From positions 1-64,000 of IMG/VR virus record IMGVR_UViG_2522572155_000001: a DNA stretch of 64,000 nt; one strand, written 5' to 3'. Made by a program: the position numbers and the translations under genes. The first letter of the stretch is position 1. Every line of letters starts with the position of its first letter. This DNA comes from a virus (taxonomy: Duplodnaviria > Caudoviricetes). A model generated the notes under the pieces. The model saw only the letters and a program-made list of their open reading frames with translations. It was not told the origin of the DNA and made no database searches. Positions 2,607 to 55,530 of this stretch are shown one piece after another.

Positions 2607-2879
2607 CTAGGCAAAGTCTTCTCCCATCATGAAGTCGAGCATCGTCTGGAAGACCGGCTCGCGGGGGAGGATCCCAAGCTCGCAGTACACGGGATCGTGG
2701 TACATGAAGGCACGCTCGTAAAGGGTCAGGATGTTGTTGTCCTTTACCCAGTCGAGGACCGGCACGTATACGTCATGCCGGAGGTTGTTCCAGTGGATGC
2801 CGCCGTGGCCATCGATCGCGGACGGCTTCCACTGGCGCACGAGCGCGTAAAGCTCGACGGCAATGATCGCGTCGGTCAT
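2607..2879 (-). CDS. Hypothetical protein
   Basis: 90 aa, tightly packed with neighbours, normal composition. Confidence 0.7.
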   Translation of the reverse strand: MTDAIIAVELYALVRQWKPSAIDGHGGIHWNNLRHDVYVPVLDWVKDNNILTLYERAFMYHDPVYCELGILPREPVFQTMLDFMMGEDFA

Positions 2880-2881
2880 GG

Positions 2882-3265
2882 TTAGTCACGCAGTCCTGCG
2901 GCGGCCTCCATCACCTGAACGTAGAAGTCGTCCCAGGTAGACACATCCTTGCCGTCGTATAGCTCGGGGAGCGTCGGAAGCTGGTCGTCGGTGAAGCCTT
3001 CCTGGCGCAGGTAGTTACGCACGCCCATGCCGCCGCTCATGTGCCATGACCACTTGACCGTCTCGTCGCCAATGTCGACCGTCGCGGCAAACGGCTCCTC
3101 GTGGATGAAGTCGTGCCCGTAGCGCCGGTGACCTACTACCACGTCGGTGACCATGTCCGTGTCCCACCAGGACGCATTGCGAATGATCGCCACGGCGCGG
3201 TCGCGGTCTGCCTGCGACAGCTTCGCCCAGGCGATGTCGGGCCAGTTGTCGGGGAAGTTGCTCAT
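2882..3265 (-). CDS. Hypothetical protein
   Basis: 127 aa, AGGAG RBS upstream. Confidence 0.75.
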   Translation of the reverse strand: MSNFPDNWPDIAWAKLSQADRDRAVAIIRNASWWDTDMVTDVVVGHRRYGHDFIHEEPFAATVDIGDETVKWSWHMSGGMGVRNYLRQEGFTDDQLPTLPELYDGKDVSTWDDFYVQVMEAAAGLRD

Positions 3266-3274
3266 GTTCTACTC

Positions 3275-3883
3275 CTATCGGTGGGTCGCGATGACCGGGC
3301 CATCGGGGCTGTAGTCCTGAAGGTCGGGGTGCTCGCGCAGACGCTTGAGCGCGTTGTGGATGAACTGGTAGGTCGCGGCCTCGCTGCGGCCGATGACCTC
3401 TCCGATGTCCTTGCGCGTCCACGTCTCGTTCTCGCAGAAGGCGAGCCACAGCGCGAGGCGAGCCTCAGGGGAGAGGTCGGCCATTGCCTCCGCGAGGATG
3501 CCCCGGAGGTACGGGTCGACAAGCTCGATCTCCTCAGCCGGGATCAGGCTGGCCAAAGTCTGTGCGTCGCTGGGAGCACTGAATCGCTTCACCTGTACAT
3601 CGAGCGAGAGCACGTCGTAGCGATTGGGGTCACGACGAGTGCCCGTCTGGATCGAGCGGAGATAGTCTCGGATAGCACCGTACGCCCGGAAGTACACGAA
3701 CGACGTGAACGCCGCGCCCGCCTCCGGGTCCCAGCGCGGGGCTGCCTCAAGCGCGCCGAGGACACCCACCGACACAAGGTCTTCCGAGTCCGCGAGGTGA
3801 TGCGATAGATGGAAGTTCTTGCTCACGATGGACCGCACCATCGGGAGCACGCTATCGATGTCTGCTTCTGTGTACGCGGGCAT
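3275..3883 (-). CDS. Phage RNA polymerase sigma-70 family factor (FliA/WhiG-like)
   Basis: Region 2 EDLVSVGVLGALEAAPRWDP...FTSFVYFRAYGAIRDYLR; region 4 HTH TRKDIGEVIGRSEAATYQFIHNALKRLR; GGAGG RBS. Confidence 0.9.
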   Translation of the reverse strand: MPAYTEADIDSVLPMVRSIVSKNFHLSHHLADSEDLVSVGVLGALEAAPRWDPEAGAAFTSFVYFRAYGAIRDYLRSIQTGTRRDPNRYDVLSLDVQVKRFSAPSDAQTLASLIPAEEIELVDPYLRGILAEAMADLSPEARLALWLAFCENETWTRKDIGEVIGRSEAATYQFIHNALKRLREHPDLQDYSPDGPVIATHR

Positions 3884-31601: not shown

Positions 31602-32200
31602 TTAGACGTGCTGCTCCCGCAAGAGCTTGTCCCGCAAGCCCTCCAGGTACTCGATCTTCTGCTGCTTCTCTTCGGTGAACTGCTGCAACGTCGGGCCGGG
31701 CCTCGCGGCGGCGAGCTTGCGCTGCTCGCGGCCGAGGTCACGGCCCACGAGGACCCGGAGATACGCGAGGTCTTCGTCGGTCAGGAAGTCGTCCATCATG
31801 GGGTCTCCTTGACGGCGGTGAGGAAGGCGCGGGCGTTGCTGAGCCGGTAGAACGTGACAGGGACGGGGGAGCCCTTCATCAGCCAGTCTGAGGCGCCTGT
31901 GCGGCCGTCACCGGACTGCGGGACCATGGGGTAGCCCTTGAACCACCACCAGCCGTCCTTACGGCGCATCTTCGCGGGGGCCGAGTAGTCCAGGGTGTCC
32001 AACCAGTCGAGCAGTAGCTCGCCGTACTTCGGTCCCTCCACGTGGGCGACCGGGGCATCCGCGCCCCGGCCACTGCGCACGAACTCCAGCCGGAACCTGC
32101 CGTTGCCCACCGAATAGCAGAGCAGGGGGCGGCCCTTGAACTCGCCACGGTACCCGCTCTCGTGACGCTTGAGGTACTTCAGGGGGAAGGTGTCGTCCAT
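31602..32200 (-). CDS. Two hypothetical genes downstream of ardC (31796-32200, 31602-31799)
   Basis: Stop/start overlaps. Confidence 0.65.
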
Positions 32201-33300
32201 CACGCAGCCTCTCCGTTGATCGGCTCCTGGGTGTTCTGCTGCACGCCGAGAATGTAGTCGGCGGCCTTCTGCGCGCGGGCGGCGGCCATGACCAGCCACT
32301 TGCGGTCCTTGGCCGTCTCGTCCTTGATGGCCTTCGCCCAGCCGCTGAGGTAGGCCGCGCTCTGGTCCAGGTCGCCGTCAATGTTGGCCATGCCGCAGAG
32401 GAACGCCGAGCCCATCTCGGCCACAAGCTCCTCCTGCGCATAGGGCTGCCCGCTGCCGAAGCCCGTCCACTGCTTGACGCGGTGCAGGCGGCTCTCGTGG
32501 CCGGTCGAGTGCACAAGCTCGTGGAACAGCGTCGCGTAGTACGACTCCTCGGTGCGGAAGTCGCCGCGCTCGGGCATCTGCACGTGGTCGAGGAAGGGCG
32601 CGTAGTGGGCGCTGTTGCCGCCGTGACGGAGGCTGGGGGCGTTGGGCATTTCGGTGACGATGGACTCGGCGGCTTCGATCGGAGTGAACTCGACCTCGGG
32701 CTCGGCCTCCGGCTCCTCCACGATGCTGGCGAGGTCCAGGTTGTCGCACTGCTCGACGTTGAAGACCTTGAAGTAGGTGAGCAGCAGCCGCTGGACCTGC
32801 TTGGGCTTGCCGGTCTTCGGGTCCAGGATGACCTCGCCCGTCTTCGGGTCCTTGGCGTCGGCCCTGAACGGCTTCCAGAGGGTCACGAGGGTGGACTCCT
32901 CGCCCTTGATGACGCCGCCCCGGTAGCCCGCCTTGACGGCCTCCATGTATGCCGTCTCGCCCGCCTCATCGTCCGCGTGCCCGTTGGCCTTCAGCCACAC
33001 GGCCTTGGCGCGCTTGGCGGCCTGGTTGAACGTCAGCCAGCGCGGATCGTTGTAACCCATCGAGGCGGCGGCGACGTTGAGGAGGAAGACGTTGATGCCC
33101 CGGTAGGCACGGCCGGTGATCGCGTTGCGCATCTGCTCGATCGGCTGGCCGGGCTTGCTGCTCCAGGGCTTGCGCCAGGGCTTGATGCCCGCGTCGAGCG
33201 CCTTGTTCATGGCCTCGTTGACGGCGACGTAGACGTCAAAGCGCTCGGCACTGGAGCGGCGCTTGCGGGGGGACTTGCGGGAGGTCTTCTTCGCGGCCAT
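32200..33300 (-). CDS. ardC: ArdC-family antirestriction protein (ssDNA-binding plus zincin-like domain)
   Basis: PWRKPW, NAITGRAYRGIN, WLTFNQA, VFNVEQC, YYATLFHELVHSTGH, EELVAEMGSAFL. Confidence 0.92.
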   Translation of the reverse strand: MAAKKTSRKSPRKRRSSAERFDVYVAVNEAMNKALDAGIKPWRKPWSSKPGQPIEQMRNAITGRAYRGINVFLLNVAAASMGYNDPRWLTFNQAAKRAKAVWLKANGHADDEAGETAYMEAVKAGYRGGVIKGEESTLVTLWKPFRADAKDPKTGEVILDPKTGKPKQVQRLLLTYFKVFNVEQCDNLDLASIVEEPEAEPEVEFTPIEAAESIVTEMPNAPSLRHGGNSAHYAPFLDHVQMPERGDFRTEESYYATLFHELVHSTGHESRLHRVKQWTGFGSGQPYAQEELVAEMGSAFLCGMANIDGDLDQSAAYLSGWAKAIKDETAKDRKWLVMAAARAQKAADYILGVQQNTQEPINGEAA

Positions 33301-43190: not shown

Positions 43191-46100
43191 TCAGGGCTGA
43201 TGGTAGCCCAGGGCCGTGTGCACATCCTCGACCGGCACCTTGAAGCCCGGATCGGCGTACGGGTTCCGGCTGCCGTTGTGTTCGCTCACCGTGCGGAAGC
43301 GATAGTGTCCGCCCTCGTTGATGAGTTCGTGAGGCGTGCCGTAGGTATCCTTGAACTGCCCGCCGCCCATTCGCATCGCCTGTTCCAGGCTTTCCCGGTC
43401 GTAGTGGTGAGTCTCGGTGCAGGGGTTCGGGTGCTCCTGGGGCTCGACCCACGGGTGATACTCGACCGGCGGTCCGTCGAAGTGGTGATTGAGCCCAATC
43501 GGCTGCCAACCCTGAAAGTCCTCAATTGAGCGTCGGGGGTAGCCTAGCTTCTCGTCAATTGCACGGTGCTCATCCAACTCGTGCTCGGCGTAGCGGTGCG
43601 CGGAACGCGGCCGTCCGCACTGCCCGCACTCGTCGTAGTCGGACCACTGACGCTGATCCTCTACGGTGACGTTGTGCTTGCTCGTGGTGTCGAACACGAC
43701 CGGGTGGCCGTGTTCGGACTCCTTCATCACCGTTAGGTCGCGCGGGGGCGGCGGGCGCTTCTCATCGCCGCGACAGTAGGCACACTTGTCGCTCGGCAGT
43801 CCCATCAGGGTTCCGGTGCCCGGGACGACCTTGTACGTACCGTGACAGTTATGGCACTGGCCGAGGAGATTCACCTTCTTCATGTAAACCAGGAGATCGG
43901 TGTAGTCCTTCCCGTCGTGGATCAGGTCCATACCCGTAGCCGCCTTCTGCTGCTCGATGATGTTTCGGGCCATCGTCTCGGCCTCGGCCTCGGCCTTATC
44001 GGGCGGGAGCGACTTCAGGTACTCGGTAATCAGGTGATTGGGCACCGTATTCGGATCAGGCTCAGGCGTCCAGTCTTCGGGGAAGTAGTCGGGCACGTCG
44101 GACGACAGCTTAGCGCCCGCGAGCAGCCCTGTCACCTGCTGGAGCAGCCCTCGGTTGTCCAGCATCTTGTAGGTGAGGTTCGAGGCGGCGAAGTCCCCCT
44201 TGCCCGCCGCCTGGTCGCGCATCCGCTTGCGGTGTAGCTGCCGGTAGAACATGACGGCCTTGTCGGGCTCGTAGCGCAGCAGCCGATCCATCTTGTCGGC
44301 GTTGATGAGCGCCTGCGTGTATGCCTCGTTCTCCTCGTGCTCGGGATCGTGCGCGAGATCGGGCTGGGGCGGGACGAGCCACTTGTCCTGGATGACGTTG
44401 TAGCCCGAGCGTAGACCGGGCTGGTAGAGGTCGGCGGGCTTGATGCCGCGCGCCACGACGTAGGTCTGTAGCTCATGTGTGGTGCCCGGCATGATGAGGC
44501 CGTCGCACGCCTGGATCATCAGGCCGATCATCTCCGAGCGCGACCACTCGGGGAACTGCTCGGCGTCCACGAACAGCGACACGTCCACGTCCGAGTGATC
44601 GGCGTACTGGTACGTCGTGAGGCTACCGGTGAGATACAGGCTGCCCCACTTCTCGCAGCCCGTGTAACCCGCCTCGCTTAGGATGCTGTAGATCGAGTCC
44701 ATGATCCACAGCCGATGCTCGTGCTTGAGGCGCGGAGTGGGGGAGGCCGGGTCATCCCATACCGTGGGGTCGAGTGTGTCGCGGATCGGGTCGAGGACGT
44801 TGCCCTGGCGCTTCGGGATGCGCGGGTCCGGCTTCACGGAGTCGTTGATGTCCTCCTCGATCACGCGCTTCCACCACGGACCCTCGTATGGGCCGCCGTC
44901 GCTCTCGCCCTCAAACCACATCATGAGGGCGTTCTGCATCGCCTTGTCGGCCATCTCCGGCGTCGTGCCGGGGTGGATCCTCACGAGGCGGTCGATCGCG
45001 TCCTGGCGCGAGAGGTTGTCGCCGTTGACCATGAGGTTCCACGCCGACATCTGGAGATCGGAGTCGGGGTACCGGCGGAAGTCAGTGGCAACACGCGCCG
45101 CACGTAGCTGCGACGGGGGTACGATGTTCTCCTCGCCCGTCTCGGCGTGCACAACGCTGACAAGCGGCTCGTGCGGGTCATTGACGATGTCGGTCACATA
45201 GTGCGGCTGACCGTTGAGGAGAACGCGCTGCCCGTGCGTAAGCTGGCGCTGGAAGAGTGCCTGTGCGTCCTCCGTCGACACCGGCTGAGCCATCGGGTGC
45301 TCCGCGTTGGTGAAGACGTGATCGCACGCGCCCTGCTCGCAGCGCTGTAGCTGGCGCCTGATGTTTCCAATCTGGACCGGGACCGGCTGTCCTCGGCCGC
45401 CGCCATGGACGCTGCCGAAGCCGGTAACGATGTGGCGGTTGCCGTTCGCGTCGGGCCACGAGTACATCGGGTGGCCCTGGGCGTTGTACTTGTCCAAGGA
45501 CCAGTGCGGCATCTCGGCCGCCATGAAGTCGGCCTCGGACTTATAGTTCGCGGCTAGGCGTGATTGAGCGTCCGGCAGTGCGGACAGACGCCTGTCGGCC
45601 CGGGCAGCGCGATCGGCTCCCGGCAGCCCGAGCAGGTCACGACGGTCGTCCGGCCGCCCTGCGCCGATGTGAGTGCGATCTTCTTCATGCTCGTTACGCG
45701 ATTGTACCGGGCCGCCCTGTAGTGGTCCATGGCGCTTCGCCACGGTACGGTCAAACAATGTCTCCTGCCCCGGTGGCGTCCTCTTCGGCCTCGGCCGAGG
45801 GTCGTAGGGCTCAATTGACCGCCACCTCGGGATCAGTGCGCCGCCGAGGTGGTTGTAGTACTGCGCGGCGATCGGGTCAATCTCCTGGTGGAACTCCAGC
45901 GGACGGAGCTTGCGCCAATCCGCTACGCCGTTGTCGGCCATGTGCTCGGTCAGGGCTTCGCGAAGATAGTCCTCGTGACCGGCCTCCTTCGCGTGCTGGA
46001 GGAGGAAGTTCGCCCATTCGGGACGGTAGCCCGGCTGTACCTGGACGCGCTGGTTCCGCCCGTCCTGCCACGTGTTCCACGACGACTCGAACCGGTCAGG

Positions 46101-49100
46101 CTCAATCATCGAGCCGATGATCTTCTCGTAGTTCGGGTCCCCGATCTCTAGGTCGGGTCCCTCGACGCCATGCTCGTCGGCGTCGCCCTGCGCGATCCGG
46201 TAATCCTCGGGCTCGTTCTCGTACCACTGATCCTGCGCATACGGGTGCATATCCGGCAGATGGTGTTCGCGGCCACCCACGTAGCCGCCGTTGTACCCGA
46301 CCAACTGTGTGAGAGATTCGGGACCGTCCATGTGGTAGGTGTCATCCCACCACGGCTGGTAGGCAGCCGCCTCGGCGCCCTTCGTCCCGAGGTACTCGTT
46401 CATGCGGTCGTTGTACTCGTCGTCCACGTCCTGGTTGGAGCGACCCTTGTACTCCGTCGTCTCCGACCCGGGACCGACCCGGGCGCGGATCACGCCGCCG
46501 CAGTGATCGCACTGCTGGCCATGACCGTATCGACCGTAGTCATGTCCACAGTTGGCGCACTCGGCGTGATCCGGCGTCATCTGGAGCGTAGCGTGGGGAT
46601 GGTTCTTGCGGTCGCGAAGCGACAGGAAGACAGAACTGCCTAGCTCTGCATCATCGCCATAGCTCCCAACGCAATGGCCCATCATGTCGCCCTCGTCGCG
46701 CATCTCATGCCGGTTGTTCAACTGCCGCACGGTCCAGCCGTCAGGGAACTCGTGAACAACCTCACCGAGATCCTTGCGGGCCTTAGCCTCCTGGTCGGCG
46801 CGCCAGTCGGTAATGCGGGTCAGTAACTCCGGCGCACCCAACTGCATGATGTCGATGCCCTGACGGGCCTTCTTCATCTGATCGAGGTCGCGCTGAATCT
46901 CGGCCAGCGTCTGCGGGTTGAGCGGGGACTGCCCGGGACCGGGGACGCCAAGTCCTCCCACATCATTTGGGATCAGGCGTCCCTTACGCCACTCACGAAC
47001 GACCCAGGGGAGCAGCTTGTCGGCCTGGCGGTAGCCCTGTTCATCAAGGAAACGCAGGAACTCCTCACCCTCCGGCGTCTGCATGTCCGGGCGCGCGGCG
47101 AGCCAGTCGAACTTGGACGCGGTGCGCCCCATGTAGGTGTGTGCGCCCCACGGGCAGGTGCACGGCTGCCCGGTGGTGATGTGCGAGTGCGGGCGTCGCT
47201 TCACGCTCTTGTGAGGCGTTGCGCCCTGGCGGGGCGTCAAGCCCTCCGGCAGAACGCGCGGGTCAACCTCGCCCGGCACCGCGCCCATGTCCTCGAAGGG
47301 GTACTCACGGCCGGGCACAGGATCATCGCCGCCGACCATCTGGCGGTGTCCGCACCCAAGGCACAGGAGAGTTGGAACGCCGGTCTGTTCGAGGTACATC
47401 TGGTGCTCGCCGCATTCGGGGCATAGCAGCCACTCTTCGTCTACAGAGGCCCACTTAGAGGGCGTTACCGAGCCAGTCGTAGGTCCTAGAGGGTGCTCGG
47501 TTTCCGGAAGGGCGCGCAAGGCATCGCCCAGTGGCGCAATTAGCTGCTCGTGCATCTTCATGCGATCCCCAAAGGTGTAACCGGACGAGCAGCCGTTGCA
47601 CACGTAGCCGTTCATCTCAGGCACGATCGAGAGGTCGCTGCCGCACCTCGGGCACGGGGCACCGAACTGCATCAGGTAGGGCCTCTTGGGCGGGTTGACA
47701 GCAGATGTCTTAGAGGGCGTTACCTCGCCGTCCTGGTCGTCAACTAGGCGCAGGCGCTCAGGAGCGATGTGGGTGACATCGCTCTGCCAGGCGCCAGGGC
47801 GACCCCTGCCTGGCGCGGGGTCCCAGTAGTCCGCCGGAACCTGCTTGAACCACGGATCGCGCTTCAGCCTACCGACAGCGCGAGGATGAACCTCCCACAA
47901 GTCGTGCGGCTCGATGCCGTTACAAATCTCGGCGTAACGCCGCGCCTCTGGGAGGTTGTCCCAGAAGTGCATCGGGTTGCCCGTAACGGGGTTGGGGACC
48001 ATACCCTCAGCAAGCACCTGCTCGCGTATGGAGGAAGGCAGAAGCCTGTAGTACGGACGTACGCGCGCCGAGGCGACAGAGGACCGACGAGTCATCTTCT
48101 CCCAATGCTCGTACGTCGGGGCAAAGCGCAGACCGCCTCCAGCGAAGCGTCTCGCCTTCTCGATGGCATTCGGGTCAGGAGACCTACTGTCGCTCAGGGT
48201 GTACCACCCGCTCGGATGGATGACAATAGGACACTCGTAGTCCTGCGGCCAGGGGCAACGGGTCGCAGCTACATCGTCGTGGTGCGGGGCCAGCCCCGGA
48301 GCGCGGACGTTCCACATCACGGGCTCGTTGTTGACGAGGAAGCCCTTGCCCCACTCGCCGGGAGTCCAGTCCATGTGGAGCGGCGTCGAGGCCGTGCGCT
48401 CCTGGTCTACAGAAGATGCCTTAGCGGGCGCCGCCGGGATGTACGCCGGGAGATGCGTATCTCCGCGACGATGCGCGACGGTGGCACGATGCCAGCCATC
48501 GAGCAAGGTGCCCTCATGGTCGATGACCACTTCGGGCATCGGCCCAGGCATCTGCGCGAGGCTATTCACCCGGTCGGGCTCCACGTCCAGGGAGCCCACC
48601 CCGGCGATGCTCGCCAGCGGGTGTTGTGTGCGCGTCCAAGAGGGATGCTGGTGGATCTTGCGCTCCATGCGCTCCCACCAGATGTCGTTATCCACCCGAG
48701 AGCGTCCACGCGAGCCCTTGTGGAGGGCACGCATGTGCTCCATAACCTGCTCAGGTGAGATCACGGCCACAGACTCTACAGAACCGCCATTAGGGGGCGC
48801 TGACGCCATCCGGCTCCAGTCGCGAACCTTGTTCTTGAGCCACGGGTTATCCCAATGGAAGGCGTCAATCGGCTGGCCACCCGCACGAAGCTCCTCGGTG
48901 AGCCGGTTGAACAGACCCTTCCCACGGTGCTCAGGATGCGTGTACGCCGAGCCAAGCATGATGCCGCCTGGCACACCCTGCCAGGTCACGCTCGCGACCG
49001 GCTCGCCGTTGTAGTACGCGACGCGACCGTCGCCCTGGCCATGCTTCGTCGTCAGCGTGTCACCGCCACGGCTATCGAAGCGCGGGACGAAGGTCCCGGT

Positions 49101-50936
49101 GTCGTGGGAGAACCATCCCTCGTCGGCGGGACGAATCTCGTACGGGTCTACAGAATCCGCGTTAGAGGGCGTTGACGCCTGACGAGTACTCGCCCACTCG
49201 TTCACACGCGCCATGTACTCGGGCTTCGGATCGGAGTTCTTCATCCCTAGCGGCTGGTCAACGCGCGCCATGTTCGACCGGAGGCCGGAGTAGAAGCTCA
49301 CATGCGGGATGTTGTCCGGGTCTCGGAGGGAGTGCGGGTAGTTCGACCAGCCAGCCGGGTCAATGCGGTGGTGAAGTTCCAGGACCGGGTGCCCTGCCGC
49401 CTTCGCATCCTCGTAGTACTCGGACAGCGGGCCGTAAGGGATGTCCACTCCGCTGTCATCCTCATCTGGGTCGAGCCAATCCCCCTGAGGGTGGCTGGCC
49501 CACATGCCCGCCGGAGAGTCGGAGTAGTCGCCGTTCCAGCAGTTGTGCATCAGTGCACCCTCGCGGTACACATCGCTCCAGGTGGTCGGACGGCGGATGG
49601 TCCAGCCGTCCGGGAAGGCGTGGACGACCTCGGACTGATCGGGTGCGCCAATGGCCGCCTCTACTTCGGCGGCGCGACGGAGCTTTTGCGTCCTGGTCTC
49701 CGCTCCCACGCGCTGGGAGTTTACAGAAGGCCCGTTCGCAGGCGCTGACGCGACGGTGCGATCGAAGAGCGACGCCTGTCCCTCGGGATCCTGGGTCGGC
49801 ACCACGGGCCACGGCTTGCCGTTGACGCCCGTGATGTTGACGGCGTCACCCGTGGGGACGCGCCACTCCTTGAGTGAGCCCATCGGGTAGCCGTGACCAT
49901 TCTTGACCGGCTGGGCCTCAACGACGCCGATGTGGTTCGGATTGACCTTAGCGAACCACTCGGGGTCGACACTAGTGAAGAGCGGGTCAGGCGGACCGCC
50001 GCTCCAGCCACGCATCGGCGCATACGGGTTACGCCACCACTCGAATGCCTCATGCGCCTGCTCCTCTGGCGAGAGGTGACGGTAGACGCTCTGGGCGGTG
50101 TAGATCGGCTTCTCAGGCGACCCGAGGGCGTAGGCGTCCTCGTAGGGGTAGTAGCCGTACTGCGCCCACTCCTCAGCCGGAAGGGTCTGAAATCCGCCGC
50201 TCATACCCTTTAGCGGGTGGCCCTCGGGTAGCAAGTGTGAGTAGAACGGCTTACGGCCCAGGAGGAGGTCATCAAGCGCGCGAGGATTGCCCCGCGACCA
50301 GTCATGGTCACCGAACATCTTGCGTAGCCACGGCTCCTTGGCTCCCTCGCCCTTCTCGGCCATCTCGACCAGGCGGTGGATCGGGAGGCGGCCGGAGGCA
50401 ACGTCGGCGCCCTCGCGCATGGCCATGAGGATGTTGTGCGCGATCGTCGGGTCGTCGGTCAGCGAGATCGTCTCATCGTCACCGCCGCCGAGTCCACGAC
50501 CGGCGTTGACGCCGTTGAGATCGAGTTCATGACGCGACCGCAGAACCCCGGACTTCAGAACGTCGGGCAGGTTCGTGGTGACGTGATAGAGCTTCTTCGG
50601 CAGCGGCTTCCAGGACCCGGTGTTCTCGTGGTACGGCGCCCAGGAGTTCGAGTCGGCCTCGTAACCGCTCGGGCGGTACCCGCGAGCCACCGCCTCTGCG
50701 GGGGTGAGACGGCCGGTCGCGATGGCATGGCGGGCGGCGCGATCCCACTCCTTCTCCAGGCTCCGAACCGTCTCGTGATCGCGGTCTAGGTGCCGCGTCC
50801 GCGCCCCGTAGTCCTCGTATGGCTCGTACGGCCGCTGCGAGGGATAGCCTCGATACTCGTCACGGGTCTGGTTGAGGATGTCGTGGTTCACCGGGATGAC
50901 CGGCATCGCCTTGCGCCTGAACGGATTACGCATCAT
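43191..50936 (-). CDS. Giant polyvalent protein: ART, PcfJ, GNAT, ParB-like, WTPG domain, second ART-like, Zn ribbons, second PcfJ, HicA-like, SH3-like, Pol-beta nucleotidyltransferase
   Basis: LYHVT..ISLT..KEWRV; EGALMHNC and EGDMMGHCVG..SLRD; HPEHRGKGL; LLDGWHR; LTGSLTTYQYADHSDVDV. Confidence 0.85.
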   Translation of the reverse strand: MMRNPFRRKAMPVIPVNHDILNQTRDEYRGYPSQRPYEPYEDYGARTRHLDRDHETVRSLEKEWDRAARHAIATGRLTPAEAVARGYRPSGYEADSNSWAPYHENTGSWKPLPKKLYHVTTNLPDVLKSGVLRSRHELDLNGVNAGRGLGGGDDETISLTDDPTIAHNILMAMREGADVASGRLPIHRLVEMAEKGEGAKEPWLRKMFGDHDWSRGNPRALDDLLLGRKPFYSHLLPEGHPLKGMSGGFQTLPAEEWAQYGYYPYEDAYALGSPEKPIYTAQSVYRHLSPEEQAHEAFEWWRNPYAPMRGWSGGPPDPLFTSVDPEWFAKVNPNHIGVVEAQPVKNGHGYPMGSLKEWRVPTGDAVNITGVNGKPWPVVPTQDPEGQASLFDRTVASAPANGPSVNSQRVGAETRTQKLRRAAEVEAAIGAPDQSEVVHAFPDGWTIRRPTTWSDVYREGALMHNCWNGDYSDSPAGMWASHPQGDWLDPDEDDSGVDIPYGPLSEYYEDAKAAGHPVLELHHRIDPAGWSNYPHSLRDPDNIPHVSFYSGLRSNMARVDQPLGMKNSDPKPEYMARVNEWASTRQASTPSNADSVDPYEIRPADEGWFSHDTGTFVPRFDSRGGDTLTTKHGQGDGRVAYYNGEPVASVTWQGVPGGIMLGSAYTHPEHRGKGLFNRLTEELRAGGQPIDAFHWDNPWLKNKVRDWSRMASAPPNGGSVESVAVISPEQVMEHMRALHKGSRGRSRVDNDIWWERMERKIHQHPSWTRTQHPLASIAGVGSLDVEPDRVNSLAQMPGPMPEVVIDHEGTLLDGWHRATVAHRRGDTHLPAYIPAAPAKASSVDQERTASTPLHMDWTPGEWGKGFLVNNEPVMWNVRAPGLAPHHDDVAATRCPWPQDYECPIVIHPSGWYTLSDSRSPDPNAIEKARRFAGGGLRFAPTYEHWEKMTRRSSVASARVRPYYRLLPSSIREQVLAEGMVPNPVTGNPMHFWDNLPEARRYAEICNGIEPHDLWEVHPRAVGRLKRDPWFKQVPADYWDPAPGRGRPGAWQSDVTHIAPERLRLVDDQDGEVTPSKTSAVNPPKRPYLMQFGAPCPRCGSDLSIVPEMNGYVCNGCSSGYTFGDRMKMHEQLIAPLGDALRALPETEHPLGPTTGSVTPSKWASVDEEWLLCPECGEHQMYLEQTGVPTLLCLGCGHRQMVGGDDPVPGREYPFEDMGAVPGEVDPRVLPEGLTPRQGATPHKSVKRRPHSHITTGQPCTCPWGAHTYMGRTASKFDWLAARPDMQTPEGEEFLRFLDEQGYRQADKLLPWVVREWRKGRLIPNDVGGLGVPGPGQSPLNPQTLAEIQRDLDQMKKARQGIDIMQLGAPELLTRITDWRADQEAKARKDLGEVVHEFPDGWTVRQLNNRHEMRDEGDMMGHCVGSYGDDAELGSSVFLSLRDRKNHPHATLQMTPDHAECANCGHDYGRYGHGQQCDHCGGVIRARVGPGSETTEYKGRSNQDVDDEYNDRMNEYLGTKGAEAAAYQPWWDDTYHMDGPESLTQLVGYNGGYVGGREHHLPDMHPYAQDQWYENEPEDYRIAQGDADEHGVEGPDLEIGDPNYEKIIGSMIEPDRFESSWNTWQDGRNQRVQVQPGYRPEWANFLLQHAKEAGHEDYLREALTEHMADNGVADWRKLRPLEFHQEIDPIAAQYYNHLGGALIPRWRSIEPYDPRPRPKRTPPGQETLFDRTVAKRHGPLQGGPVQSRNEHEEDRTHIGAGRPDDRRDLLGLPGADRAARADRRLSALPDAQSRLAANYKSEADFMAAEMPHWSLDKYNAQGHPMYSWPDANGNRHIVTGFGSVHGGGRGQPVPVQIGNIRRQLQRCEQGACDHVFTNAEHPMAQPVSTEDAQALFQRQLTHGQRVLLNGQPHYVTDIVNDPHEPLVSVVHAETGEENIVPPSQLRAARVATDFRRYPDSDLQMSAWNLMVNGDNLSRQDAIDRLVRIHPGTTPEMADKAMQNALMMWFEGESDGGPYEGPWWKRVIEEDINDSVKPDPRIPKRQGNVLDPIRDTLDPTVWDDPASPTPRLKHEHRLWIMDSIYSILSEAGYTGCEKWGSLYLTGSLTTYQYADHSDVDVSLFVDAEQFPEWSRSEMIGLMIQACDGLIMPGTTHELQTYVVARGIKPADLYQPGLRSGYNVIQDKWLVPPQPDLAHDPEHEENEAYTQALINADKMDRLLRYEPDKAVMFYRQLHRKRMRDQAAGKGDFAASNLTYKMLDNRGLLQQVTGLLAGAKLSSDVPDYFPEDWTPEPDPNTVPNHLITEYLKSLPPDKAEAEAETMARNIIEQQKAATGMDLIHDGKDYTDLLVYMKKVNLLGQCHNCHGTYKVVPGTGTLMGLPSDKCAYCRGDEKRPPPPRDLTVMKESEHGHPVVFDTTSKHNVTVEDQRQWSDYDECGQCGRPRSAHRYAEHELDEHRAIDEKLGYPRRSIEDFQGWQPIGLNHHFDGPPVEYHPWVEPQEHPNPCTETHHYDRESLEQAMRMGGGQFKDTYGTPHELINEGGHYRFRTVSEHNGSRNPYADPGFKVPVEDVHTALGYHQP
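45554..45688 (-). CDS. Nested 44-aa Zn-finger gene in an alternative frame of the 2581-aa ORF
   Basis: MKKIALT..CSGC..CPHC; GC-ending codons in this frame; TGGACC-N17-TACAAT upstream. Confidence 0.6.
   Translation of the reverse strand: MKKIALTSAQGGRTTVVTCSGCREPIALPGPTGVCPHCRTLNHA
47439..49745 (-). repeat. Six direct 27-bp dif-like repeats at 47439, 47694, 48405, 48774, 49146, 49719
   Basis: Coding-strand consensus RCGCCCTCTAA-N6-TTCTGTAGAC; spacings 255, 711, 369, 372, 573 bp. Confidence 0.85.
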
Positions 50937-53900
50937 ACATTCTGGCCGCGCTCAGCAGCGTTTCCGGGTTGTTGGCCGCCGGGTCTTCGAGCACGATGTC
51001 GGTGAGGTGACGTAGTACCTCGCCCATCTGCGGGCCGGGCGTGAAGCCAGCACGGATGAGGTCGTGCCCGTTGATCGCCAGATGGCTCGCGTTCGTGGGC
51101 TCGCCCGCTTCACGTACTCTGTTCACCAGTTCGCGCTGCTTATCCACGTTGAGCTTCGGATCGCTCGGGTATTCCAGCTTGCCGCCCTGGTCGGCCTGGC
51201 GCAGGAGGAGAAGGTCATCGGCGTTCTCGTCGCCCACCTTGTTGATGAACTTTCGCGCGCCGTTGGTGGAGTGGAAGGCAGGGAACATGTGATGGCGCAC
51301 GATGTGCGTCATGTAGCCGATGTCGTCGTTGGAGACGCGGAGGTCACGCAAGTCCTGCTCGAACTGGTCAGCCCCGAGCGGAGCGTGGTCGGCTCCCCAT
51401 ACAGTGCGGGATCCGTTCGGATTCTCCTGGCGCCACTCGTAGTAGTGACCCTCGCCGTCCTGCCCGCAGGTGGGGCACACCTTGCCGGGGATCGGGTTCT
51501 TCACGCGTAGGCCGGTGGCGTGGTCGGTCTGCGAGCACGGCTTGCACTCGAACCACTGCGAGTCCACCTTGCCGTTGTCGTGGTTCGCCGCCGCTAGCTG
51601 GAGTAGCGGGTGTGCCCCGAGTTGCTTGGCGTGACGGAGGACGAGCAGGTTGTGCTCTCCGAGGTCGCCCTCGGGGTGATGCGGGTTGTACTGCTCGAAG
51701 CCCATCGTGCGGGCGAGGCCGGGTAGGAAGTAGGGGAGAGTGCCTGTCTCGTGCGCGAGCCGCAGCGACCGCTCGGTGTACGGCGCGGGCTTGGGTTCCC
51801 GCGTTTCGGGGTCGAGCCCGAACATCTTGAAGAGTTCATTGCGCTTGCGATCGGCCGGGAGGTGCACGAGGCGATCGGCGTACATCGCCATCTGTGCCTT
51901 GGTCATCTCGTCGGGTTCGAGTCCGTGGCGCGCGTTGAGCGCGAGCGCGCGCATGATCCGCAGCGGGTCGTCCTCGAAGCTCTTGGTCGAGGTGGTCGAG
52001 AACGTGCCGTGCCGGATGGCGTCGGCGCCGCCGTAGGGGTCCACGAGCTTGCCGGTGTCGAGGTCGACGCCCATCGCGTTGACATTGAAGTCTCGCCGGG
52101 CGAAGTCTTCCTCGGGGGTCATCGTATGGTCGGCCTGCACGTCGAAGTCGGTGTGCTCGGGGCCGGTCGAGCGCTCGCGACGGGGGAGGGCGATCTCGAT
52201 GACCTCGCCGTCCTGGCGATAGCGGATGACGCTGAAGTCCTGGCCGTGCTGCATGACCTTACCGGGGAGCCTGCGCAGGGCGGCCAGCACCTGCTGATGC
52301 GGGAGCCCGGTGACCATCAGGTCCAAGTCCTTGGGGGCCTCGCCCATGACGGCGTCGCGGACCGCGCCGCCGACCACGTAGACGTGCCCGCCCTCCTGCT
52401 TGAGGGCCTGGTAGACGCGCCAGGCAAGGTCATCCTGGGCGACGAGGTTGGCGATGTGCTGGCCGATCTCCATGTTGGACGTGATCGGCCGTGCCGACAC
52501 GGGCTGGTATGCGGGATTGGGGGCGAACTTCCAGCCTCCGGGGCCGTCGTCGCTGATGCCGGTCATGACGTGCGTGCCGACGATCGCGTGCGGAGGGATA
52601 GTGCCCTGGTGTGCGAGCGAGTGATGCTGGTCGCTTTCGAGGATCACTTGCGTGAGTTCGGGATTGTCTCCCAGGCCAACTCCCTCCGCCCACCTGCCCT
52701 TGTTGTCGTACTCGCCGGTGTCCCACATCCCAGTAGGAGTGGCGTCCTCGTCGGGGTTGATGTTCTCCGGGTCGAGATAGCGCGGATCTACCTCAACTAC
52801 CGTGGCGTCATCTGACGCGGTCGTGGGAGCGATGTTCCACGCAAAGTCCTTGTCGTTAGTTAGGTACACGTGGCCCGGGCGCGGGGTCATCCTCGGGTCC
52901 CAGTTATGCTGACCTAGCTCATCCCACGGACGCAGACCCTGGCGGGTGATGTCAGCGGCACGACTGCTCGTCGTGCCATGGTAGAGCTTCTCCCACTTAG
53001 GCCAACCCTGGTAGCGAGACCGTGCTAGTTCCGGCTGCGTCTCGTCCTCCCAATAGCCTTCATCAACCGGGCGGGCGACGCGTGCCAGCTTCGTGTCGTT
53101 ACCTGCGTCGTCGCGCAGATGGACCGACTTGATGACGAATTCCGGGTGCTGGTAATACCAGAGTTCCAGCATGTGCCGAACCGTGTAGGGCATGTTGGTG
53201 AGCGAGCGGACGATTACCTTGCCGCCCGGCTCGTATGTGCCCTCAACGATGCCGCCCGGGGTGAACTTGCCCTGGATGTCGGAGTGGCGCTCGCCGGGGT
53301 GACCGACTGTCACGGAGTCCTCGTCCACGTCATAGATGAACGGTACGGCACCTTCAAGGAGCTTGGAGGGATCCTGGTCGGCCGACCAGCGGTAGATACG
53401 GTGCCCGGCATGGATGAAGCCCATCCGGGTGAGGACGTGGAACTCTTCAGTCGCCGCAAGCCGCTGCCCGTCCGGCGAGTACTCAGCGGCGAGGTGCATG
53501 TGGAGGTCCGTGTAGACTCGCTGAAGGCGCGAGAGGATCGCGTCAGTGACGTGGAATCCCACGGGTGAGGAAATCCAGGTGAGCAACGGGCCTTCGAGGG
53601 CAGCGCAGCCAACCGGCGATCCGTTCTCGTAGGCCGTGTAGTAGGTGCTCTCTGCGTGGCGGAAGTAGCGGTGATTGACACCGGGTACCTTGTCTGCCTC
53701 TGCATTGCTCGTGCGGAGGATGACGCCCTCGAAACGGGAGAAGTTCGCCCCCGGAGGACCGGGCGGGCCATCCGGGTAAGCCGAGCGGGGCATAGGGAAG
53801 TGGCGCAGGAAGTAGTCGCGCACGAAGTCGTGCGTGGCGGGCACCACCGCACTGACACCGCCGTTCAGGAAGATGAGACGGTCGCCGCCAGCAACGTTGA

Positions 53901-55530
53901 CCGAATCGAACCCATTCGCGGCCAACCAGTTAGCCGCCTCAGCCAAGTCACTCTGCACGTCCCCCTCAAAGGCGTGCGGATCAGCCTTGATCTCCTCAGG
54001 ACTCCACGCCTGCCCGAAGCCAACCTGTCCAACCGGCTGATCGCCACGGTAGACGTAGATGCCGAACCCGCGAGTGGCGAGATCAGCATCCCAGGGCCAC
54101 GGCCCGCGTCCATGAGCCGCAACGACGTTCGTCGGCTCGAAGCTCTGCTCGGAGAAGTTGGGCGGGAAGGTGGCGTCCTGGTCAGGAAGCTCGGGGAACT
54201 TGGACGGCTGCACCGTGGTGTCGGTCGTCCCCATCGGCTCCTCCTGCTCACGGTGACGAATGTAGAGGTCCCAGCGGGGGAAAATCTGGTCGCACTCGGG
54301 GCACTTGAAGACTCCACCGGGCGCGCGCTCGTCACGCTGCGGCTCGTTGAAGAACTGGCCGCCCTCGGGCTCGTTGTCGGTTGGGCTCCAGAGGTTGTCG
54401 GTCTGTAGGTCTTCGATGCGCTTGACGACGTTATCCCCGGCCATCAGGCGCAGACCGCTGTCTGTTGCCCACTCGCTCAGTGCGGTGAACAGGTACGGGC
54501 GATCCCGGAAGCGCGCCACCTTGGCGACAGCACCTTCGATGTGAATCGCGCCGGTTACGGCGGCCTCCCTGGGTCCCACGCCGTAGTCAGCTTCGATCGC
54601 CGTGGCGAGGTCCCATGCGGAGCGCGCGAGCAGCAGATGCTCTGTATCAGGTAGCCAGGCGTAGATCAGGCGGGATGACTTCTTCGGAGCGAAGTCATCG
54701 TTGATCGGCTGCCCGCTGGAGTCCACGAGCCCGCCCCACTCCCAGCCCACGTGCTTGTCGTAGTCCTTGAGCACCCGCTCCAGGGCGTGGAGAGCGATGT
54801 TCGACCGTAGCTGCCAGTTGGCGCTGCCCATATTGACCGTCACGAATCCGGCGGCGAACGGGCCGGTGTGGTCGACCGGGATCCCGGCCTGGCGAGCTAG
54901 CTCCTCGTGGGAGTCGTCGGCCGAGAGATGAAGGTTGCCATTGCCGTAGACGACGTTGTAGGTCTTCGGGCCGTCCGGGGCTCCGGGGGTGTCGTGGAGA
55001 TAGCGCTGGTTGTAGTTCTCGACCGCCTGCGCCTCCTCGCCGGGGTAGGCGTCTCCGAGGTCGAACGCGAGCTTGGCGTAGCGGCCCTCTAGCGCGCGAT
55101 CGGCGCGCGACATGAAGCGGACAGTGCGCGGCTCCGGATCGATGTCCGGGATGACCTCATGCCCGGCGAAGATAGGATGAGTAGTTCGCTTGTAGAGCAT
55201 CGGTGCCGTCCTCCACCGAAGGTGCTCCGGGTGAAGCCGCAGGCCGGGATCCTCTTCGTCCAGCCGGATGCCCTCGATAGACGGATCGGCAGGCGGTAGG
55301 ACGTGGCGATCACCGCAGATATCCAGAGCGTGCTTGCCGTCCGTCCAAAAGTAACAACCATCCTTGCGCCCGACGTGTCCCCCGAGCTTGCTCTGAAGCC
55401 AGCGTGAGGTGACGTAGCACTGGCCCACCGCAGGTACCGGGTGACCACGAAAGGCGTCAGGGCGCGTGTCATCAGACCACGCCTGCGTCGCGGCATTCTG
55501 GAGGGCATGGATTTGATCCTGGCTAAGCAT
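50926..55530 (-). CDS. Polyvalent protein: YunG-like domain, Zn finger, GNAT-like, Tpt1/KptA-like ART, class II CCA tRNA nucleotidyltransferase with HD domain
   Basis: AWS..GQCYVTS..LGG; LYHGT..GLRP..VYLT..TIPP; [34 protein letters not shown]. Confidence 0.88.

Follow-up and report, generated by a model that had tools for sequence, protein, structure and literature searches.

The window considered here is the whole stretch of 64,000 nucleotides that was analysed (positions 1 to 64,000 of the IMG/VR virus record IMGVR_UViG_2522572155_000001), corresponding to G000:C5:223233-287232 of a 6.64-Mb genome with a GC content of 72%. It falls within an island of about 165 kb with a GC content of 62-67%, located roughly at C5:215,000-379,700. 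The island contains genes for portal, tail and anti-restriction proteins, 32 tRNA genes and a tmRNA gene in one cluster, and a single tyrosine recombinase at its right end; this gene content, together with the end-located recombinase, therefore identifies the island as a large prophage. Its gene P0001 codes for a giant polyvalent protein in which a short repeated sequence, always in the same frame, lies at the junctions between domains. The gene and the six junction repeats are as follows.

43191-50936, minus strand: polyvalent-protein gene P0001, 2581 amino acids, carrying all six repeats and lying between the portal-side and tail genes.
49719-49745, minus strand: junction repeat 1, residues 398-406, APANGPSVN, preceded by GCG TCA; between the N-terminal module and PcfJ-like module 1.
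49146-49172, minus strand: junction repeat 2, residues 589-597, TPSNADSVD, preceded by GCG TCA; between the PcfJ-like and GNAT modules, overlapping a region (577-594) with low predicted local distance difference test (pLDDT) values.
48774-48800, minus strand: junction repeat 3, residues 713-721, APPNGGSVE, preceded by ATG GCG TCA; between the GNAT and ParB-like modules, coinciding with low pLDDT at 712-722.
48405-48431, minus strand: junction repeat 4, residues 836-844, APAKASSVD; between the ParB-like and the next module, with low pLDDT from residue 839 on.
47694-47720, minus strand: junction repeat 5, residues 1073-1081, TPSKTSAVN, preceded by GTA; after a block common to P0005, the positional orthologue in a related phage (residues 956-1067).
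47439-47465, minus strand: junction repeat 6, residues 1158-1166, TPSKWASVD, preceded by GTA; between two Zn-ribbon modules.

A sequence-only reading of this stretch had reported six direct repeats sharing one reading frame, and both observations hold. All six copies, located between 47439 and 49745 on the minus strand, are in the frame of the open reading frame (ORF) 43191-50936 and fit the degenerate pattern RCGCCNNCKAA-N6-YKCTGTMRAS, which was derived from the six sites of that reading, with no mismatches. The pattern matches the window exactly six times, on the minus strand only, against an average of 0.09 matches in shuffled sequence. In the 6.64-Mb genome, no further copy was found at zero mismatches, and one mismatch added a single GC-rich look-alike. 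Scanning of the whole ~165-kb prophage with a position weight matrix (PWM) recovered only the six sites, which score 31-39 bits, the next match reaching 13 bits; PWM scans with single arms likewise revealed no additional full site in the prophage. A chance origin of the six repeats is ruled out by the shuffles, the genome scan and the gap in PWM scores.

The encoded peptide is [AT]-P-[ASP]-[NK]-x-x-[SA]-V-[DNE]. GCG TCA (Ala-Ser) stands before three of the six sites and GTA (Val) before two, and with these codons the repeat unit comprises 27-33 nucleotides coding for about 11 residues, (A-S or x-V)-[AT]-P-x-[NK]-x-x-[SA]-V-[DNE]. Sites 1-3 follow the sequence R/T-x-A-S, the motif that bounds the homologous GNAT block in the polyvalent protein P0006.

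Several other roles for the repeats were considered and rejected. The lack of a consistent -10 hexamer at the repeats is at odds with promoters or stoperators, the sole possible stem of an RNA hairpin is 4 bp long and broken in two sites, and the hidden stops, which the left arm has as TAA in frame -1 and the right arm as TAG in frame +1, are no sign of selection in a gene that already contains 74 and 85 off-frame stops.

The repeats are conserved beyond the needs of the peptide, as had also been claimed. The codons TCT GTA are present in five of the six sites, although TCT accounts for 13.7% of the Ser codons and GTA for 11% of the Val codons of the gene; in the host, TCT, TCA and GTA make up 1.4%, 2.2% and 1.1% of their codon families, respectively. 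The second variable codon ends in T in five of the six sites despite coding for different residues (P, D, G, S, S and A), while 13% of the third positions in the gene are T. The mean pairwise difference per site is 0.67 in the six-nucleotide spacer and 0.22 at the third positions of the arms. Silent arm positions are thus about threefold less divergent than the spacer, and therefore the conservation of the repeats is partly at the nucleotide or codon level; a Fisher test of the spacer against the silent arm positions (p = 2e-4) overstates the difference, since the six copies are not independent. As an internal control, the two copies of the heptapeptide LFDRTVA in P0001 differ silently at five of seven codons. 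Conservation of the peptide only is ruled out for P0001 by this control, by TCT GTA and by the third-position T. The GC content at third codon positions (GC3) is 0.77-0.83 in the domains, which is normal for the phage, and 0.46-0.62 in the junctions. Because the domains have native GC3, the A/T-ending codons of the junctions are not the trace of a recent import, and acquisition from a low-GC donor is ruled out.

The LFDRTVA heptapeptide is preceded by G-Q-x-x in both of its copies, located at 49749-49769 (minus strand, residue 390) and 45738-45758 (minus strand, residue 1727). The first copy directly precedes junction 1. The Q-x-x-L-F of the copies resembles a sliding-clamp-binding motif. The second is followed by a segment of odd composition, rich in Arg, Gly, Asp and Ala (residues ~1734-1810, window positions ~45500-45740, minus strand).

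The domains of P0001 have homologues in more than 100 other multi-domain phage proteins, in which their order varies. A HMMER search of residues 380-1200 against 1.84 billion representatives gave 260 matches, which were re-aligned by BLASTP. The PcfJ-like (407-588), GNAT (598-712) and ParB-like (722-835) segments and the block 956-1067 are each found in dozens of other phage proteins of several domains, where they are arranged in every order. In the BLASTP alignments, 93 begin at junction 1 and 104 stop at junction 2, the blocks of homology start immediately after the motif, and no relative retains two adjacent modules across a junction. The AlphaFold model of residues 560-860 consists of two confident domains, the first with GNAT-fold matches, and has pLDDT values below 50 in stretches that coincide with or overlap junctions 2, 3 and 4. 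The position of each repeat between domain cassettes, proposed in the sequence-only reading, is thus confirmed by the ends of the alignments and, at junctions 2-4, by low pLDDT; the expected variation of domain order in relatives is likewise found and is high, with breakpoints at the junctions. The peptide sits between independently folding and independently evolving domains. The domain names given in that reading fared unequally. Pfam identified PcfJ confidently and the GNAT, Zn-ribbon and nucleotidyltransferase domains weakly, the GNAT assignment being supported also by the fold, and the label ParB-like relies on homologues flagged as ParB_N. The ART labels received no support from Pfam, and the ART-PolyVal model matched nothing in the genome but also missed its control.

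Three other genes of the prophage are relevant to the interpretation of the repeats.

50926-55530, minus strand: multi-domain gene of 1534 amino acids, overlapping the start of P0001 by 11 nucleotides; its C-terminal end is a CCA-adding nucleotidyltransferase.
32200-33300, minus strand: ArdC-like gene with an MPTase-PolyVal zincin peptidase domain (PF18818, 118.8 bits).
C5:378210-379658: tyrosine recombinase frame of 482 amino acids at the prophage end, beside candidate att repeats.

The ends of the prophage (G000:C5:~215001-379723) carry two short direct repeats in swapped order, namely an 11-mer (X) at 215001 and 379713 and a 13-mer (Y) at 215031 and 379676.

Two phages syntenic to the prophage, represented by the loci L027 and L033, retain the C-terminal part and the position of the 1534-aa gene, while the polyvalent gene downstream of it ranges from 394 to 2581 amino acids. 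In L027, where the upstream CCA-enzyme gene is conserved and the shared blocks have about 70% nucleotide identity, the positional orthologue P0005 consists of 781 amino acids and has a different set of domains, with the block 956-1067 and the nucleotidyltransferase in common with P0001. Three junctions of P0005 are formed by an identical 15-nucleotide repeat encoding V/G-T-P-P-A. It resembles only the left arm of the P0001 site, with silent differences (ACA CCG versus ACG CCC) and no right arm, and the block common to both proteins begins and ends at P0005 junctions. L033 shows 60-80% protein identity over 10 kb and encodes an orthologue of 394 amino acids without any such junction. The one-armed repeat of L027 and the absence of a junction from L033 indicate that the domain array expanded in the P0001 lineage, to which the two-arm motif is private. 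No protein within 90% identity of P0001 was found, except for alternative start calls of the same gene, and the phage record collection contained no match. In L027, a transposase gene of the IS481 family (2747-3724, minus strand) abuts the 3' end of P0005 and may have truncated it at a point equal to residue ~2278 of P0001.

A metagenome scan for the DNA motif gave six matches, five of them chance-like; the sixth is in L034, a soil contig of 1528 nucleotides with a GC content of 65%. The same 30 nucleotides are found there in frame, with all of the conserved positions and the same rare codons, and the spacer is one base away from that of site 1. In L034 the motif forms the first codons of a stand-alone gene of 80 amino acids, whose GTG start overlaps the stop of the upstream ORF. 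A 5-nucleotide tandem duplication, GTGAC GTGAC (L034:1240-1262, minus strand), makes this overlap exactly at the motif, and with one GTGAC copy removed the two ORFs fuse in frame to encode ...R-V-T-P-A-N-E-P-S-V-D..., like sites 5 and 6. The rest of the contig has no resemblance to the prophage, and the 80-aa protein has no homologues. A chance match is unlikely, given that the motif is in frame, opens a gene and agrees also at positions that the search did not use. The arrangement shows the unit working as the N-terminal leader of a stand-alone module, with fusion and fission occurring at it.

Many of the proteins matched by HMMER carry a recurrent junction peptide of their own, such as KTAA, KTSA, KTAN, RTAA, KQAS, SKWK or EKADPG. 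In P0019 (55% GC) a stretch of 23 nucleotides is identical in the four junctions that separate ParB-like, ART-like, GNAT and ART-like domains. In P0119, P0020 and P0006, [KR]-[TQ]-[AS]-[AS] is kept as a peptide only, with randomised codons, and is present also 6-11 residues from the N-terminus; the stand-alone homologue P0015 starts with M-D-K-T-A-A. The observed pairwise codon identity and that expected from codon usage are 1.00 and 0.44 in P0019, 0.83 and 0.34 in P0005, 0.67 and 0.35 in P0001, 0.54 and 0.38 in P0020, and 0.29 and 0.37 in P0119. This spread fits a peptide that is functional everywhere, with DNA identity set by the recency of junction copying. Recurrent junction peptides are thus shown to be general among polyvalent proteins, and they are found also at the N-termini of whole and of stand-alone single-domain proteins.

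The KTAA-like motif recurs in many polyvalent proteins that are otherwise unrelated, among them P0119, P0020, P0019, P0012, P0004, P0006 and P0015 (loci L031, L032, L029 and L028), mostly with randomised codons, and looks like a widespread junction or processing signal acting at the peptide level. The SKWK motif occurs in P0144, a polyvalent protein of 1566 amino acids from a phage with a GC content of 37% (L030:3001-7701), as seven copies of S-K-W-K-(I), all with Ser encoded by TCT; the final copy is at the extreme C-terminus (...SKWKIC-stop).

The reading that we favour, with a probability of about 0.6, is that the repeats are a leader or linker of modules, a probable flexible tether and processing signal, which spreads together with its domain by homology-assisted recombination, fusion and fission. 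Each effector domain would be preceded by the same unstructured junction peptide of about 11 residues, which would tether the modules flexibly and most likely also mark them for processing or packaging, so that the giant precursor may be cut into separate effectors. A candidate for the protease is the MPTase-PolyVal protein encoded in the element; a head protease is another possibility. Peptidases of the MPTase type have been proposed to process polyvalent proteins (Iyer et al. 2017, PMC5512222). The ArdC-like/MPTase-PolyVal gene, which is separate from P0001, unfused and about 10 kb away, is the sole candidate processing protease found in the element; the same type of gene accompanies the polyvalent gene P0006 in L028, and we infer a functional tie of it to the junctions. 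Head proteases of large phages cleave behind small-x-Glu; that of phage SPN3US, gp245, cuts after A-x-E (PMC10052503), a loose analogue of S-V-[DE]. Whenever a domain is gained, duplicated, fused or split off, its leader would go with it, by recombination that relies on homology or microhomology and by small indels at the leader; a site-specific recombinase would not be needed, and the degree of DNA identity among the copies would reflect how recent the copying events were. The host-rare A/T-ending codons may also be held by selection, either because they make translation pause or because they were inherited from the 5' ends of genes.

Several observations weigh against this reading. The last residue is N, not D/E, at two of the six sites, and head proteases of the S77, S78 or ClpP type were not found in the prophage. 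Copying followed by drift fails to explain the near-saturated spacer (0.67) beside the silent arm positions (0.22), as well as the persistence of junctions of low GC3 between domains at 0.77-0.83. Arms of 10-17 nucleotides are short for homologous recombination, RecT and YqaJ recombination genes were not found, and no near-identical relative was found that would capture a recent gain or loss at the sites. In addition, L034 was found by means of the DNA motif, and its identical codons are therefore biased by ascertainment.

The features that copying and drift leave unexplained are where other readings start. The A/T-ending codons (TCA, NCT, NNT, TCT and GTA), rare in the host, could slow ribosomes at domain boundaries and thereby assist co-translational folding, the peptide being a mere linker. 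The host frequencies of TCT, TCA and GTA and the GC3 difference between linkers and domains agree with this. When 11-codon segments of the gene are ranked by adaptation to the host, four of the six linkers fall in the lowest 14, and the linkers of P0005 likewise use rare GTA, ACA, CCT and GCT. Yet the prophage encodes its own tRNA-Ser(GGA), tRNA-Ser(UGA) and tRNA-Val(UAC), and by the codon usage of the phage the linkers are not outliers; moreover, common codons of the arms (RCG, CCC) are conserved as well, and the same rare codons recur although any rare codon would do. A signal of this kind is consequently an unlikely explanation. We consider somewhat less probable still that the junctions are relics of gene starts, the ORF having been fused from small genes that shared a leader whose A/T-rich codons were once selected for open initiation mRNA and have not yet decayed. 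In L034 the motif does lie right after a GTG start overlapping an upstream stop, one 5-nucleotide duplication away from fusion; the GTA preceding sites 5 and 6 and the P0005 linkers differs from GTG by a single transition, site 3 follows an ATG GCG TCA with GGAG upstream, and stand-alone homologues of the domains are common. Against this, L034 is one split example only, most sites have no Shine-Dalgarno remnants upstream, and the full amelioration of the domains but not of the linkers argues for continuing constraint rather than recency.

The sequence-only reading itself took the 27-nucleotide motif for a two-arm site at which a tyrosine recombinase, either XerCD of the host or an enzyme of the phage, inserts, deletes or exchanges domains without loss of frame; the unlike spacers would make the six sites heterospecific, blocking internal deletion and permitting allelic exchange of cassettes. 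The 11-6-10 layout, with conserved arms and an unconstrained six-nucleotide centre, fits the Xer architecture, the silent sites of the arms are conserved, and the inner bases TAA-N6-TT.TGT resemble the core of dif. The same motif with another spacer is present in the otherwise unrelated contig L034. However, comparison of the left arm with the right arm in reverse complement reveals no dyad symmetry beyond the innermost AA/TT; in dif the halves of the inner arms are symmetric and better conserved than the rest of the site (PMC2731167). E. coli dif is matched at only 10 of 21 arm positions, and no sequence of the genome, the six sites included, comes within 9 mismatches of 28. The host dif was not located with E. 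coli-like patterns, including generic ATAA-N6-TTAT scans. Neither sites nor donor cassettes were found elsewhere in the prophage, in the genome or in 400 genomes of the same order; scans of viral and genome collections with the DNA motif gave single chance matches only, as did a codon-degenerate scan of viral contigs among the matches listed. About 18 loci of the genome match tyrosine recombinases. Only one of these is in the prophage, where its terminal position is that of an ordinary integrase; serine recombinases were not found there. The 13-mer Y near this gene shares CTGTAGAG with the right arm, 8 nucleotides in the case of site 3, but the genome has four copies of it, and its score does not reach that of the best right-arm PWM matches; a link to the integrase att site was therefore rejected and the similarity is treated as a coincidence. 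The syntenic orthologues of L027 and L033 have no two-arm site, and the linkers of other polyvalent genes, identical among themselves at the DNA level, are contiguous and unrelated in sequence; since these unrelated linkers show the same phenomenon, a copying process independent of sequence is indicated. With no dyad symmetry, no partner sites, an integrase-like recombinase and orthologues lacking the site, use of the repeats as dif-like sites is unsupported and we regard it as very improbable. That the motif is a real nucleic-acid site, with two protein-contacted arms and a free six-nucleotide crossover region recognised by a phage or host recombinase, is an outside chance, left by three results: the silent arm sites are three times more conserved than the spacer, the linkers resist the GC amelioration of the domains, and the same motif with another spacer is present in the unrelated contig L034. 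In-frame exchange of domains between co-infecting phages would then amount to naturally occurring recombinase-mediated cassette exchange in which the spacers are heterospecific, or to an integron that handles protein domains.

Compared with Xer dif and pdif sites, the repeats share the two conserved arms of about 11 nucleotides around a variable six-nucleotide centre and the similar inner TAA...TT.TGT. They differ in being coding and in frame, with six copies in 2.3 kb, in having neither inner-arm dyad symmetry nor detectable similarity to the dif consensus, and in that no module circles or partner sites were seen. The module leader that we prefer has parallels among peptide signals. The head maturation protease gp21 of T4 cleaves at L/I-x-E, and the capsid-targeting or propeptide leaders recognised by gp21 and by SPN3US gp245 are likewise short, precede a cargo and have a small-x-acidic end; the P0001 unit is also N-terminal in the stand-alone L034 protein. 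In contrast to those systems, no such protease was identified in the prophage, two sites end in Asn, and cleavage is predicted from the sequence. In polymorphic toxins, pre-toxin motifs such as VENN of CdiA and PxxxxDPxGL of Rhs precede the toxin domain, and orphan cassettes recombine through the DNA coding for the motif (reviewed in PMC7662968 and PMC6336857). There, too, a short conserved peptide-coding stretch borders a swappable domain, and it could serve both for processing and as homology for cassette exchange. Those proteins have one motif before one C-terminal toxin, with orphan cassettes nearby, whereas P0001 has six motifs inside one ORF and the PWM scans found no orphan copies in the 165-kb prophage.

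Also among the nearest known systems are the polyvalent proteins of phages and of conjugative elements, which are thought to be cargo injected by phages to disarm host defences. With many unrelated domains in one phage polypeptide and an MPTase-type peptidase in the element, P0001 can be classed among them on the basis of its predicted domains. As in the described cases, a giant multi-domain phage protein is encoded near virion genes, PcfJ-like, GNAT, ParB-like, nucleotidyltransferase and Zn-ribbon modules are combined in variable order, and the element also encodes an MPTase-PolyVal peptidase (Iyer, Burroughs, Anand, de Souza and Aravind 2017, PMC5512222). The difference is that this main paper on polyvalent proteins does not describe recurrent junction motifs (the terms 'linker' and 'shuffl' are absent from its text), while P0001 has a repeated unit of 27-33 nucleotides conserved at silent sites. 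Such a unit, marking every module, common to fused and split forms of the gene and alike at the DNA level, would predict both the points at which the precursor is processed and those where recombination adds or removes effectors, and it may be used as a tag by which effector modules of uncharacterised phages can be recognised from sequence.

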